Origin: a virus
Taxonomy: Duplodnaviria; Caudoviricetes
IMG/VR virus record: IMGVR_UViG_3300045015_000053
Strand: one strand, 5' to 3'
Length of the DNA: 64,000 bases
Shown: positions 6,702-62,720 of the stretch, one piece after another
How the letters are laid out: every line of letters begins with the position of its first letter
How positions within the stretch are numbered: position 1 is the first letter of the stretch
The notes under the pieces: generated by a model
What the model saw: the letters and a program-made list of their open reading frames with translations, nothing else
What the model was told of the DNA's origin: nothing
The model's database searches: none
Made by a program: the position numbers and the translations under genes

Positions 6702-7079
6702 GGGGATGAAAAGGTTTCGATACGGTACGGAGGTTGTGAGTTGCACGCCGTGGTTGAGCGAAGGGCCACGTTAAAAATCGTTCAAACTCCATCTGGCAAA
6801 ACCAGTGGTCTGCGTCTGGTGGGCGACCGCCCGGCGCTCCGTCTCGCGGCTTGACCGCGACGGGTCCGCGAGGGACTTCAGATAACTCGCGGGTCCGCAA
6901 CACATCTGGATCGGTCATCAGGGTTGCTCCCTGACTGATGGCCGGAACTACCAGGGAAGCTTGCTCGTGACCTTGATGTCGGTAAGAGGTTACGGGGACT
7001 CCAGGCCCGACTAAGCGTGTGAACGAAATTTACAGTTGAAGTAGCGTACACGCGGGTTCGACTCCCGCCATCTCCACTA
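6702..7079 (+). ncRNA. ssrA: tmRNA, tag (A)GKTSGLRLVGDRPALRLAA
   Basis: 5' GGGGATGAAAAGGTTTCGA; 3' T-arm GCGGGTTCGACTCCCGC and CATCTCC-A with G3:U wobble; tag frame 6795-6854 ends LAA-TGA. Confidence 0.93.
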
Positions 7080-7115
7080 GAATACCCCGCGATTGCTCGC
7101 GGGGTATTCTTGTTT
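7080..7115 (+). terminator. intrinsic terminator after tmRNA
   Basis: GAATACCCCGCGA-ttgc-TCGCGGGGTATTC then TTGTTT. Confidence 0.85.
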
Positions 7116-7128
7116 CCAGAGGCAGATC

Positions 7129-7659
7129 ATGTTCGCAATCTTCTCCGGTCAGCACGACGATCATCAACTCGACGGCATATTTTCGACGCAAGAGAAAGCC
7201 GATGCCGCTCTTGTCGAAGTCTCGAAGATCCGCGACCATGCTGTCATTTCTCAAATCGTTGTTGACGAGTTGTGCGGGCGAAAAGCGATCCCTCATTGGC
7301 GTGCAACAGTAAACGTGGCTACTGGTGAGCTTTTGTTCGACAAAGAAGACGGATCGTATCGATTCTACGAGGGTGTGAGTTACAACTGGGAAGATGCTCC
7401 CTACCCCGAACTCGACACTTATGTCAATGTGATTCAGATAATCCCTTACCGTCACAACGGCTACATCCCGAAAAACTTCTCAGTCTTCTCGGCCAAAAGT
7501 CAGGAAGCCGCAAGAGAGTTGGCGCTTGCGGCGTGGGCGGAACTGAATCGGAGGCTCGATTTAAGCAAGATCTACCACGCGACCGGCTCGATCTGGTATC
7601 CGAAGGAATTGACCGAAAAACTGTACGAAGACGGGGTTTGCAAATTCCCTTCGGCTTGA
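7129..7659 (+). CDS. hypothetical protein
   Basis: ORF with GAGG RBS. Confidence 0.65.
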   Translation: MFAIFSGQHDDHQLDGIFSTQEKADAALVEVSKIRDHAVISQIVVDELCGRKAIPHWRATVNVATGELLFDKEDGSYRFYEGVSYNWEDAPYPELDTYVNVIQIIPYRHNGYIPKNFSVFSAKSQEAARELALAAWAELNRRLDLSKIYHATGSIWYPKELTEKLYEDGVCKFPSA

Positions 7660-7751
7660 TCGGTCTATATTGTCGTCGTGGTGACTGCTGGCTTGTTCGT
7701 GACCTCCCTTTCTGATAGACTTTCAAAGTCACTCAGTTACGGAGTTTAGCG

Positions 7752-8009
7752 ATGTTTTCCAAAGCCGGTCACTGGATTTCTTACAAGTGGTTCTCGTTCA
7801 TCCTCTGGGCCTTTCCCAGTCGCGCCGAACGGTTCCACGAACGTAAAGGTATGAGAAGGGCAATCGGCGGGCGGTGGGGTCTGTGGGAAGTTGACATGGG
7901 CGGCTGGATGGGGAAGTTTCACATCTGGTTGCGATCCCAATGCGAACACTACCCTTCCCCGCCGTTCGCCACCTCAACTGAACCTCTGGAAACGGAAGAG
8001 TACAAATGA
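7752..8009 (+). CDS. Trp-rich hypothetical protein
   Basis: ORF with ATGA overlap to the next gene. Confidence 0.55.
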   Translation: MFSKAGHWISYKWFSFILWAFPSRAERFHERKGMRRAIGGRWGLWEVDMGGWMGKFHIWLRSQCEHYPSPPFATSTEPLETEEYK

Positions 8010-8401
8010 AGCGTCTCATCTTGGCCGTCGCCCTGTTCGCTCTCGTCGGCTGCGGCCCGACTCTGTACGAACTGAAACAACGTACCACCTCGGATTTGAA
8101 CGTCATCGCTCAAGAGTGGGACGGGAAGGCGAATCCCCCCGATCTGAAGGGCCGGCTCGATCCGTGGGGCAACCAGTACCAAGCCGCCGTGACAAAGGAA
8201 AAGCTCAACTACAAGTTGAGCGTCCGGTCGCCCGGACCAGATCGTCTGCCGTACAATTCTGATGATCTTGTCGTCACGCGACAAGCCGCTCACGGCGAAA
8301 CCACACAGAATCTCGAAAACGAGGGATTCTTTTACTCCATCTCGAAGGGCATCTTTGGCGGCGCACGCGACGGCGTCACCGGCAAAGAGTCCAAAAAGTG
8401 A
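8006..8401 (+). CDS. lipoprotein with GspG/T2SSG-like C-terminal motif
   Basis: Lipobox ALVG-C; DPWGNQY ... SVRSPGPDRLPYNSDDL. Confidence 0.65.
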   Translation: MKRLILAVALFALVGCGPTLYELKQRTTSDLNVIAQEWDGKANPPDLKGRLDPWGNQYQAAVTKEKLNYKLSVRSPGPDRLPYNSDDLVVTRQAAHGETTQNLENEGFFYSISKGIFGGARDGVTGKESKK

Positions 8402-8436
8402 TCAGCCCGAACCTCTAACGACCGGATGAGGACAAT

Positions 8437-8919
8437 ATGTCACTCGTACTTTCCAGCAGCAACCCTCGCGTCCGCGTGAAGACCTACGGCTTCGCCGAGG
8501 AAGTGGTCACGATTACATGTGAGGATCAGTGGAAGCCGCCGTTCCGACAAGTGGACGTGCCGATCAAGAAGTTCCTACAAATGGCGACAAGCTTCTTCCA
8601 GAGCTACGTCAGCGGCCAAGAAGCGCCGGCGTCAATTCGGATGTGTGGGGACCGGGTGCTGATGAATCTGGCCGAAGGGTGTCTGTTCGACGTGGCGGCG
8701 TGTGATTTGTTTCACATGATTCGCTACGTCATGACCAACACCGACGTGCGGCCTAACGACCCAAGACACCAGTTCTTCGAGTCGTGCAAGAGTCTGCCGA
8801 GGCCGAAATCGGAGGCGAACGGCACCGTGGACGTGATGATTCGATTCTTACAGGACGCCAAGATCGTGCCGGGCTTCAATACCCACCTCGGCAATAATTC
8901 AACTCGATACCAAGTCTAG
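8437..8919 (+). CDS. hypothetical protein
   Basis: ORF with GAGG RBS. Confidence 0.65.
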   Translation: MSLVLSSSNPRVRVKTYGFAEEVVTITCEDQWKPPFRQVDVPIKKFLQMATSFFQSYVSGQEAPASIRMCGDRVLMNLAEGCLFDVAACDLFHMIRYVMTNTDVRPNDPRHQFFESCKSLPRPKSEANGTVDVMIRFLQDAKIVPGFNTHLGNNSTRYQV

Positions 8920-8920
8920 G

Positions 8921-8972
8921 TTGGATTCTTTGTTTATGGTCTGTTATACTTCCTGAGTCACCACTCAGGAGG
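8921..8972 (+). promoter_or_regulatory. extended -10 promoter plus RBS-sequestering hairpin
   Basis: TTGGAT-18-TATACT with TG at -15/-14; TCCTGAGT-cacc-ACTCAGGA covers AGGAGG. Confidence 0.5.
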
Positions 8973-8978
8973 TATGAC

Positions 8979-60856: not shown

Positions 60857-60858
60857 AC

Positions 60859-60929
60859 GCGGGATTCGTTTAGTGGCAAGATCCAACTTTCCCAAAGTTG
60901 AGTCGCCGGTTCGATTCCGGCATCCCGTA
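60859..60929 (+). tRNA. tRNA-Gly(CCC)
   Basis: CAACT-TTCCCAA-AGTTG; A73. Confidence 0.88.
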
Positions 60930-60933
60930 CTGT

Positions 60934-61006
60934 GGGCCATTGGCATGTCTGGCGATTGCAGCGGACTGTTAACCCGCCGAGGTTGGTTCGATTCCAACAT
61001 GGCCCT
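60934..61006 (+). tRNA. tRNA-Asn(GTT)
   Basis: GCGGA-CTGTTAA-CCCGC. Confidence 0.88.
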
Positions 61007-61026
61007 CTCGCTCCAAGAAAGGCAAC

Positions 61027-61281
61027 ATGAGCAAGACAACGTATTACCGGCAGTGCCGACTTCAACGCGGCAATTGCCACCAAGTGAGTTGGATTCCCGA
61101 ACCGTACTGCGTCAAGGACAAAGTCCTGAAGCTCAAGAACAGTGACGGTGTTTGGGAGAACGGATGGGTGGTGAAGGGAGCCGGAACCAACCGGATCACC
61201 GACGTGCCGCACGCCGAAGGTTTGATTCGCGCACACCGGAAAGCTACTGGTGATTCGCTGCCGAAAGGTCCGAACAATTGA
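61027..61281 (+). CDS. hypothetical protein inside the tRNA array
   Basis: AAGG RBS; YRQC.L...VSWIP. Confidence 0.65.
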   Translation: MSKTTYYRQCRLQRGNCHQVSWIPEPYCVKDKVLKLKNSDGVWENGWVVKGAGTNRITDVPHAEGLIRAHRKATGDSLPKGPNN

Positions 61282-61284
61282 AAC

Positions 61285-61342
61285 AGGGGCAGGGTTTAGC
61301 CACCCTGATCGGTCGGGAGTAGCTACCCCGCCCGTGGCCCCT
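61285..61342 (+). ncRNA. two-arm tRNA-like element
   Basis: GGGGC/GCCCC closing helix; AGGGT-6 nt-ACCCT; GGtcGGG-AGTAGCTA-CCCcgCC. Confidence 0.4.
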
Positions 61343-61346
61343 ACAC

Positions 61347-61417
61347 GCGGGATTCGTTAAGTGGTAAGACGCATGCTTGCCAAGCATGAGACGCCGGTTC
61401 GATTCCGGCATCCCGCA
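61347..61417 (+). tRNA. tRNA-Gly(GCC)
   Basis: CATGC-TTGCCAA-GCATG; A73. Confidence 0.9.
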
Positions 61418-61544
61418 CTCCGATTTTGAAGGCTCTGGTTCCCCTTGTGGGTGGTAAAAAGATCGCGCATAATCATCACGTTGCTGCGATTGGGCTGTAG
61501 AAATCGAAACCCCCAATGTCTGCGTAGCAGACAGGGAGTAAGTG

Positions 61545-62720
61545 ATGAGTGAGAAGCTACACGTCAACGTCGGCACCATCGGTCACATCGACCACGGGAA
61601 GACCACGTTGACGGCCGCGATCCTCGCGGTACAGGAGAAAAAGGGACTGGCAAAGGCGAAGGCGTACAGCGCCATCGCGAAGGGCGGAACGGTTCGGGAC
61701 GCGACGAAGGTCGTGACGATCACGTCGAGCCACGTCGAGTACGAGAGTGACAAGCGTCACTACGCACACGTTGACTGCCCCGGTCACGCCGACTACGTCA
61801 AGAACATGATCACGGGCGCGGCCCAGATGGACGGGTCCATCCTGCTGCTTTCGGCCACTGACGGGCCGATGCAACAGACCCGCGAACACGTCCTGCTCGC
61901 AAGGCAGGTGGGCGTGCCGCAGATCGTGGTGTTCATCAACAAGTGCGACGTGGTTCAGGACCAAGAGATCCTCGAACTGATCGAGTTGGAAACAAGAGAG
62001 ATGCTCACCAAGTACGGGTTCGACGGTGACAAGACGCCGATCATCCGTGGCGCGGCGAAGCCGGCTCTCGACAACCCGACCGACCCGGAGAAGACCAAGT
62101 GCATCAGCGACTTGCTCGCCGCACTCGACAGCTACATCCCCGACCCCGTCCGCGCCGTCGAGCGGCCTTTCCTGATGTTCGTGGAAGGCGTCCACCAGAT
62201 CGTGGGACGTGGCACGGTAGCTACCGGCAAGATCGAACAAGGTGTCGTCAAGGTCGGCGACAAGGTCGAAATCCTCGGCCTCGGCGACATGAAGGAAAGC
62301 GTCGTCACCAGCATCGAAGCCTTCAACCGTCAACTGGAAGACGGGACCGCCGGACAGAACGTCGGCATCCTGCTTCGCGGTGTGAAGGCCGAAGACCTAC
62401 AACGTGGTCACGTCTTGGCCGCTCCCCGGAGCATCAAGCCGCAGACCAAGTTCAAGGCTCAGGTGTACGTTCTGGGCAAGGAAGAGGGTGGGCGGCACAC
62501 GCCGTTCATGAGCGGGTACAGCCCGCAGTTCTTCTTCCGCACCACGAACGTGACCGGGACGCTGACGCTGCCGGAAAACATCGACATGGTCATGCCGGGC
62601 GACAACGTGGCTCTCACCGTCGAACTGGAAAAAGCCGTGGCACTCGAAGCGGGTAGCCACTTCGCCGTCCGAGAAGGCGGCAAAACCATCGGTTCTGGAC
62701 AAGTGACCGAGGTGCTGTGA
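61545..62720 (+). CDS. tuf: elongation factor Tu
   Basis: [65 protein letters not shown]. Confidence 0.97.

Follow-up and report, generated by a model that had tools for sequence, protein, structure and literature searches.

Translation genes of the window

The 64,000-nucleotide stretch of DNA analyzed here (the window) is part of IMG/VR virus record IMGVR_UViG_3300045015_000053, a linear record of 188,369 bp with an estimated completeness of 37%, and carries a set of translation genes that includes a gene for elongation factor EF-Tu embedded in an array of tRNA genes. The original prediction, made from the sequence alone, had listed translation initiation factor IF3, ribosomal protein bS21, peptide deformylase, EF-Tu, transfer-messenger RNA (tmRNA), a ClpP-like protease, two initiator-like tRNAs and 18 other tRNAs, and each of these elements was found. 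The genes are present, look intact and are viral, their order is kept across deep divergence, and the set bears signatures of the bacterial phylum Planctomycetota. The principal features are listed below, with protein lengths in amino acids (aa) and, where an open reading frame (ORF) extends beyond the likely gene, with both sets of coordinates. A value after "versus" is the curated cut-off of the model; EF-Tu, IF3 and bS21 exceed their equivalog cut-offs.

6702..7079, + strand: tmRNA gene (ssrA); Rfam RF00023, 113 bits versus a gathering score of 47, full model covered
19139..19423, + strand: ribosomal protein bS21, 94 aa; Pfam PF01165, 40.2 bits versus 27; TIGR00030, 33.8 versus 28.95
19696..20187, + strand: peptide deformylase, 163 aa; Pfam PF01327, 84.9 bits
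25469..26083 (ORF 25388-26083), + strand: IF3, 204 aa; TIGR00168, 168 bits versus 60; N- and C-terminal domains
57989..58060, + strand: initiator-like tRNA(CAU), copy 1; U1:A72, A11:U24, A29:U41/G30:C40/G31:C39, A73 discriminator; ARAGORN and Rfam
58066..58137, + strand: initiator-like tRNA(CAU), copy 2; U1.G72 wobble, G2:C71, C3:G70, G4:C69; body as in copy 1
58603..61418, + strand: tRNA array upstream of EF-Tu; ARAGORN and Rfam
61542..62720, + strand: EF-Tu, 392 aa; TIGR00485, 598 bits versus 522; PF00009, PF03144 and PF03143, three domains
62784..63386, + strand: tRNA-Glu(CUC) and tRNA-Glu(UUC), downstream of EF-Tu; ARAGORN and Rfam

A conserved gene block of huge phages

Judged from its gene content and its relatives, the contig is viral, not cellular, and probably belongs to a huge phage genome of ∼0.5 Mb. 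The segment from 3 to 31 kb of the window is collinear with positions 93 to 132 kb of a 436-kb phage record (85% complete) in which a Gp23-type (T4-type) major capsid gene is present. The common order runs from the N-terminal part of dnaE (dnaE-N) through tmRNA, an AAA ATPase, the C-terminal part of dnaE (dnaE-C), a DHH gene and two unknown genes to bS21, deformylase, a thiamine pyrophosphate (TPP) enzyme, IF3, an Fe-S protein, an aldehyde dehydrogenase and DnaJ, with protein identities of 24 to 63%. A 586-kb contig from an NCBI assembly encodes EF-Tu, bS21 and IF3 with 83%, 74% and 70% identity, respectively, to the proteins of the window, surrounded by small unknown ORFs. Proteins of the record also yield strong matches to phage-only PHROG families. 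A megablast search of positions 40 to 64 kb of the window against GenBank phages returned zero matches. Neither a capsid (Gp23) nor a terminase (Terminase_6C) gene was found across the 188-kb record, and a PHROG scan of ten large ORFs of the record outside the window found no structural genes; the viral identity therefore rests on the relatives.

The original prediction had itself named a cellular origin as the finding that would undo it. In that case, the contig would be a chromosome fragment of a planctomycete, or a mis-binned chimera, and the translation genes would be ordinary host genes, which would agree with the Planctomycetota signatures in EF-Tu and the initiator tRNAs (see below) and with the lack of capsid and terminase matches in the record. 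This explanation is extremely improbable in view of the collinearity with a phage record that bears a capsid gene and of the phage-only PHROG matches. Neither rRNA nor the expected cellular operon contexts are present: IF3 is not followed by L35 and L20, EF-Tu is not adjacent to fusA or secE, and bS21 is not adjacent to dnaG. Furthermore, more than half of the ORFs match no Pfam family (the scans covered ∼70 ORFs of the window), there are 50 tRNAs in the 188-kb record, those of the window being interspersed with HNH-like ORFs, and bS21 and IF3 are just 30 to 60% identical to their cellular versions.

EF-Tu within tRNA arrays

The position of EF-Tu is constant among the related phages. In 12 of 12 related phage loci, the gene lies inside an array of tRNA genes on its own strand, the closest upstream one being 124 to 666 nucleotides (nt) away, and an unrelated 427-kb phage that encodes an EF-Tu of the canonical type shows the same placement. 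The tRNAs beside EF-Tu are those for Gly and Glu in the window and its closest relative, and those for Leu, Ser, Tyr or Phe in most of the others. The simplest reading of this arrangement would be that a phage that adds tRNAs by the dozen provides more of their carrier protein as well. The constant layout thus suggests a stoichiometric logic whereby extra tRNAs need extra carrier.

Within the window, ARAGORN identified 20 tRNA genes, all on the plus strand. Rfam confirmed 17 of the 20 and added one weak Lys(UUU)-like tRNA at 58603-58674; the calls made by ARAGORN only, at 47636, 59037 and 59175, have atypical T loops. The array upstream of EF-Tu consists, in this order, of two Lys(UUU) tRNAs, a third CAU tRNA, Glu(UUC), Glu(CUC), Gly(UCC), Gln(UUG), two Pro(CGG), Gln(CUG), Gln(CUG), Gln(UUG), Gly(CCC), Asn and Gly(GCC), and the tRNA genes continue downstream of EF-Tu and past the window end. 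Five species, namely, Lys(UUU), Glu(UUC), Glu(CUC), Gln(UUG) and Gln(CUG), occur twice each between 58603 and 63386, as one well-scoring and one deviant copy; the latter are marked by a lower Rfam score or none, by odd T loops or by longer D regions. A tRNA gene called by both programs also lies well upstream of the array.

47136..47231, + strand: tRNA-Ser(GGA); ARAGORN and Rfam

Two small ORFs located between tRNAs (60245-60664 and 62904-63329) encode a C-terminal Cys-x2-Cys-His...His pattern typical of HNH endonucleases, and each stops directly 5' of a tRNA. No Pfam match at E < 0.001 was found for either of them.

An accessory EF-Tu with a changed amino-acid pocket

The phage EF-Tu keeps the GTPase motifs G1 (GHxDHGKT), G3 (DCPGH, with the catalytic His) and G4 (NKCD), as read in the translation. 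Its switch I contains the segment AKGGTVRD..K(T/V)VTI where most bacteria have PEEKARGITI. This segment is typical of Planctomycetota genomes and was also found in a copy from a Bdellovibrionota metagenome-assembled genome (MAG), within a normal fusA-tuf-rpsJ operon. The loss of RGITI, the Lit site, was considered as a phage adaptation and rejected, because the replacing segment is common to Planctomycetota and the Bdellovibrionota MAG copy.

The comparison with host orthologs that the original prediction had proposed places the phage proteins in a clade nested among Planctomycetota EF-Tus. In the IQ-TREE phylogeny, nine of nine phage-context EF-Tus fall into one clade together with two planctomycete MAG copies, with a support of 99 in the Shimodaira-Hasegawa-like approximate likelihood ratio test (SH-aLRT). 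This clade is sister to the housekeeping EF-Tus of 14 Planctomycetota genomes, all within the Planctomycetes-Verrucomicrobia-Chlamydiae (PVC)/Planctomycetota group. The best identity among 301 sampled Planctomycetota genomes is 69%, compared with 67 to 85% among the phage relatives.

The statement that EF-Tu is uncommon in phages applies to cultured ones: among 50,697 GenBank phage records, full-length EF-Tu matches are ∼58% identical and come mostly from unannotated contig-like records or mislabelled bacterial contigs, and no EF-Tu family was found in PHROGs. It does not extend to huge phages, from which EF-Tu has already been reported (PMC7162821). In the accessible part of a published survey of translational GTPases, the actinobacterial EF-Tu2 is listed, and no phage or planctomycete EF-Tu subfamily is.

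The amino-acid pocket of EF-Tu is formed by H67, E216, D217, F219, T229 and N274 in the UniProt numbering of the Escherichia coli protein (PMC6386890). The phage protein departs from this canonical pocket at two positions, with Gly in place of D217 and His in place of F219, and keeps the other four; nearby, M261 is replaced by Ala. The correspondence of residues was confirmed by alignment to a solved EF-Tu. In the same numbering, the domain-2 changes of the phage subfamily are D217G, F219H, R231K, M261A and R263N. A nine-position signature, composed of the six pocket residues plus M261, F262 and R263, separates this subfamily from housekeeping EF-Tus. The form H-E-G-H-T-A-F-N-N is present in 8 of the 12 phage-context EF-Tus, including that of the window, and in 97 of the 120 closest database relatives. 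The form H-E-D-F-T-M-F-x-N characterizes the 29 housekeeping copies in a sample of the phylum Planctomycetota and nearly all other bacteria, and the phage form was found in none of those 29 copies and in none of 79 other bacterial EF-Tus.

The phage-type EF-Tu is not confined to phages. For example, one planctomycete MAG holds a phage-type copy (73% identity; G/H/A at the diagnostic positions; no tRNA neighbors) together with a normal copy (64% identity; D/F/M; Thr-tuf-Trp context), and the phage-type copy occurs in 5 of 81 sampled genomes of that MAG's order. The same MAG, of 6.9 Mb, also contains a third, partial EF-Tu-like gene with ∼50% identity.

We tentatively suggest, as one possible explanation, that these proteins form a previously undescribed accessory EF-Tu subfamily, with a remodelled pocket and a Planctomycetota-type switch I, which circulates between huge phages, where it is always tied to tRNA arrays, and a few planctomycetes, where it is a supernumerary copy with no tRNA neighbors, and which may be either insensitive to defence systems or inhibitors or tuned to the deviant Lys, Glu and Gln tRNAs. 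With either accessory role, if true, the phage would have a part of its elongation pathway that does not depend on the host's EF-Tu. Each of these roles can also be extended into an explanation of its own.

The first of these follows the suggestion in the original prediction that the phage genes are back-ups for host factors attacked by defence toxins. Under this explanation, EF-Tu and the duplicated tRNAs would be insensitive to abortive-infection effectors or inhibitors of the host, namely, EF-Tu-cleaving proteases, EF-Tu-binding inhibitors and anticodon nucleases, such that translation would outlast host shut-down. The changes in the phage EF-Tu cluster in domain 2, and the same domain-2 segments form the binding site of EF-Tu-directed thiopeptides. 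The pairing of canonical with lower-scoring deviant Glu, Gln and Lys tRNAs is likewise compatible with such a role, without proving it, as is the sporadic occurrence of the extra EF-Tu copy in cells (the 5 of 81 genomes above, in one case beside a normal tuf). Precedents exist: both the Lit protease and type IV Thoeris cleave EF-Tu, and Avs7 co-opts it (PMC13581612), thiopeptide producers possess resistant second EF-Tu copies (PMC3943966), and phage tRNAs that evade tRNA-targeting defences have reportedly been described. However, all Planctomycetota-type EF-Tus lack the Lit site, so its absence is not an adaptation of the phage, the threonine targeted by Doc is kept in the phage EF-Tu, and the near-complete tRNA set, IF3, bS21 and deformylase would be left unexplained. 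To our knowledge, no toxin acts on the changed EF-Tu residues. Back-up against toxins is possible, yet rather unlikely to be the main value of the phage EF-Tu and the duplicated tRNAs.

Alternatively, the phage protein could be a diverged paralogue whose enlarged, less acidic pocket favours particular aminoacyl-tRNAs instead of all of them. Candidate cargo would be residues that are acidic or bulky, or else the deviant tRNAs encoded by the phage itself. The distribution of the pocket signature, which is frequent among the phage-context proteins and their closest relatives and absent from the housekeeping copies, would fit such a carrier, as would the invariable location of the gene among phage tRNAs. 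Furthermore, the natural D217G replacement is the change selected in two laboratory EF-Tu variants, EF-Sep and EF-pY (PMC6386890), that tolerate negatively charged or bulky residues, here phosphoserine or phosphotyrosine. Against this, the flanking tRNAs vary between relatives, so that no single amino acid is implied, and the protein is without a C-terminal extension as in the EF-Tus that serve truncated tRNAs. In addition, E378, Q329 and T338, which we take to be contacts of EF-Tu with the tRNA T stem, are unchanged in the phage translation. Overall, such a dedicated carrier appears improbable. A narrower variant, an EF-Tu specialized for acidic residues as judged by the Glu/Gln-rich tRNA neighborhood of the window, was rejected as a general rule, given the Leu, Ser, Tyr and Phe tRNAs in most relatives.

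Initiator tRNAs and the host

Bacterial initiator tRNAs are marked by the CAU anticodon, an A11:U24 pair, three G:C pairs in the anticodon stem and the lack of a Watson-Crick pair at 1:72. The two initiator-like tRNAs of the phage share CAU and A11:U24 with them and have only two G:C pairs in the anticodon stem, the remaining pair being A29:U41. At 1:72, neither copy is unpaired: a U1:A72 pair is found in copy 1 and a U1.G72 wobble in copy 2. Initiator tRNAs from five Planctomycetota genomes have exactly the same anticodon arm, down to the rare A29:U41 pair, and differ from the phage tRNAs at 1:72 (the host type is a C1xC72 mismatch) and in the D loop. In these five genomes, A29:U41 of the initiator replaces the near-universal G29:C41.

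Two independent signatures, one from the type of EF-Tu and one from the anticodon stem of the initiator tRNAs, make a lake-water member of Planctomycetota the most likely host; the stretch is present in 12 lake-water DNA runs. The two signatures would tie a family of lake phages of ∼0.4 to 0.7 Mb to this phylum. No mention of huge phages of Planctomycetota was found in the literature searched.

Initiation, processing and rescue genes

The original prediction had described an N-terminal insertion in bS21. An insertion of ∼13 residues is indeed present; it follows the first strand, precedes the first helix and is therefore internal. The protein also possesses a conserved tail of acidic and basic residues, and both the insertion and the tail are common to 17 database relatives of 91 to 99 aa. 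Identity to Planctomycetota bS21 is 30 to 36%. The deformylase gene follows, and its translation contains all three motifs of the family, GIGLAAVQ, ESCLS (with Ser in place of the Gly of EGCLS) and HEIDH; its score exceeds the Pfam cut-off and remains below the TIGR00079 equivalog cut-off (74.5 versus 104).

IF3 translation probably starts from the ATG at 25469. A GGAAGGA ribosome-binding site precedes this codon, which overlaps the stop codon of the TPP-enzyme gene in front of it. In many bacteria, IF3 is translated from an unusual start codon of the AUU/AUA type that serves autoregulation, a feature that is typical, not defining. Here, ATG is the most plausible start. Given this start, the protein has an N-terminal extension of ∼37 aa rich in Q, P and N, which is common to 13 full-length relatives with 63 to 83% identity; beyond this small group of full-length relatives, identity is at most 60%. 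The low identity of bS21 and IF3 to cellular versions marks both, by sequence comparison, as long-standing phage lineages with no recognizable recent donor.

The tmRNA was not called by ARAGORN, even at relaxed settings, despite its Rfam score of 113 bits, so surveys that use ARAGORN only would undercount such phage tmRNAs. A G3:U70 pair in the acceptor stem was read in the sequence. The tag starts with the resume codon GGC and comprises 19 residues (GK...RLAA), ending in LAA followed by a UGA stop; the frame was set by alignment to the tag of the 436-kb relative, GETPAYRMAA, which ARAGORN did call. The tmRNA gene lies between the two parts of a split dnaE (DNA polymerase III alpha), at 3196-4710 and 10136-12991. 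The first dnaE ORF covers the PHP domain and runs into the beginning of the NTPase domain, and the remainder is encoded in the second ORF, 5.4 kb downstream. Several small ORFs and an AAA ATPase gene share the intervening region with tmRNA, and the same split, with intervening tmRNA and AAA genes, is present in the 436-kb relative.

Two further genes of the window encode a protease and a co-chaperone.

2232..2924, + strand: ClpP-like (S14 family) protease, 230 aa; Pfam CLP_protease, 66.7 bits
29578..30645, + strand: DnaJ-type co-chaperone; Pfam DnaJ and DnaJ_C, CXXCXGXG repeats; TIGR02349, 319 bits versus 377

The original prediction counted the protease as part of a translation kit spanning 6702-62720. 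The gene is present, upstream of this interval, and its product is a weak member of the S14 family that falls below the curated cut-offs for both ClpP (TIGR00493, 33 versus 309) and head maturation proteases (NF045542, 45 versus 120). Candidate Ser, His and Asp residues are visible in the translation, and the top PHROGs matches are head maturation proteases, with slightly better scores. The product may thus be a Clp-type peptidase or a protease of the head maturation type; the gene cannot be assigned to ribosome rescue, and its link to the kit is doubtful. The DnaJ gene, which was absent from the original list, is a member of the same conserved block as the translation genes and is kept in the 436-kb relative.

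Several other genes accompany the translation genes. A SpoVR-like protein (149-1768, 347 bits) is encoded in the same conserved block, as are the TPP-dependent enzyme, the Fe-S assembly protein and the aldehyde dehydrogenase (23814-25469 and 27260-29072), a TPP enzyme/aldehyde dehydrogenase/Fe-S cluster group that is kept in the 436-kb relative. Other window genes named by Pfam include those for PhoH, dUTPase, a sigma factor, thioredoxin and glycosyltransferases.

A translation gene set probably added to the host machinery

We consider it probable that the window carries a long-inherited phage translation gene set that is added to the host machinery during infection. The genes would be expressed, their products would enter host ribosomes, and the net effect would be to sustain translation or to bias it toward phage mRNAs. 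IF3, the two host-like initiator tRNAs and the modified bS21 would act at initiation. EF-Tu, if made together with the tRNAs of the array, would keep the delivery of aminoacyl-tRNAs balanced. The deformylase would process new N termini, and tmRNA would release stalled ribosomes.

Several observations weigh against this interpretation. The kit genes are spread over 60 kb, with replication and metabolic genes in between; bS21 and IF3 sit directly behind unrelated genes, and no common motif was seen in the 90 nt upstream of ∼25 features, which were inspected by eye without a statistical search; the coordinated reprogramming envisaged in the original prediction is not evident. A search of the 188-kb record, which represents ∼37% of the genome, found no gene for SmpB (PF01668), the partner that tmRNA requires. 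Genes for bS21, IF3 and deformylase are all missing from two further huge phages that carry EF-Tu (genomes of 533 kb and 427 kb, each rated complete), which indicates that the kit is optional. The phage EF-Tu deviates at 14 of 157 near-invariant columns (conserved in at least 95% of 109 cellular EF-Tus), and several of these differences are common to the entire phage clade; two of the six aminoacyl-pocket residues are among the 14 positions, which hints at a specialized, not a generic, role. Finally, no RNA runs are listed for the stretch, a result that is uninformative either way. In connection with regulation, a shared promoter similar to T4 late promoters was considered and rejected: TATAAATA has 0 exact copies in the record, and TATAAAC occurs twice per strand.

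The translation kit is old and vertically inherited within one sub-lineage, yet optional.

Comparison with known systems

The closest parallel is provided by the huge phages of Al-Shayeb et al. (2020), which carry up to dozens of tRNAs, IF1, IF3 and an N-terminally extended S21, as well as EF-G, EF-Tu, EF-Ts, deformylase, release and recycling factors, tmRNA and SmpB (PMC7162821). As the original prediction had stated, each class of gene is known from large phages, and that paper lists all of them and already contains the same hypothesis of a translation takeover (PMC7162821). The present phage resembles those phages in its many tRNAs, IF3, S21 with additions, EF-Tu, deformylase and tmRNA. It differs from them in the indicated host, Planctomycetota, a phylum unmentioned in the text of that paper (PMC7162821). 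Here, furthermore, tmRNA, the bS21-deformylase pair and IF3 occur in a fixed order within a conserved block of the replication type, and EF-Tu belongs to a distinct subfamily. The kit as a whole is therefore a further example of a published pattern.

A virus-encoded bS21 was reportedly described by Mizuno et al. in 2019 (PMC6375957, as cited in PMC7162821). The gene of the window is similar in being a small phage-borne S21 gene that passes the family cut-offs. It is unlike that system in the internal insertion after the first strand and the conserved tail, which are shared with only ∼17 database relatives.

The placement of EF-Tu recalls the bacterial tRNA-tufB operon, thrU-tyrU-glyT-thrT-tufB, and the context of the housekeeping tuf in Planctomycetota is Thr-Tyr-Gly-Thr-tuf-Trp. 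As in that operon, the phage EF-Tu gene is directly downstream of same-strand tRNA genes, a layout that mirrors the co-transcription of tuf and tRNAs in cells. Unlike it, the phage arrays are far larger, the adjoining tRNAs are different ones, and the EF-Tu is of the accessory type, not the housekeeping one.

Extra EF-Tus with changes in the domain-2 pocket are known as well. The tufR gene of Planobispora rosea is an example of an inhibitor-resistant second EF-Tu (PMC3943966), and EF-Sep and EF-pY carry the identical D217G change. In contrast to these, the phage EF-Tu is natural, phage-borne and widespread in metagenomes, and just two of its six pocket residues are changed. We know of no inhibitor or special amino acid for the phage-type EF-Tu. 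What is new with respect to all these systems are the Planctomycetota signatures, the location of EF-Tu in a tRNA array at 12 of 12 loci and the accessory EF-Tu subfamily with a changed pocket. Given that this natural pocket variant overlaps the changes by which engineers have widened the amino-acid tolerance of EF-Tu, it is a candidate for biochemical study.

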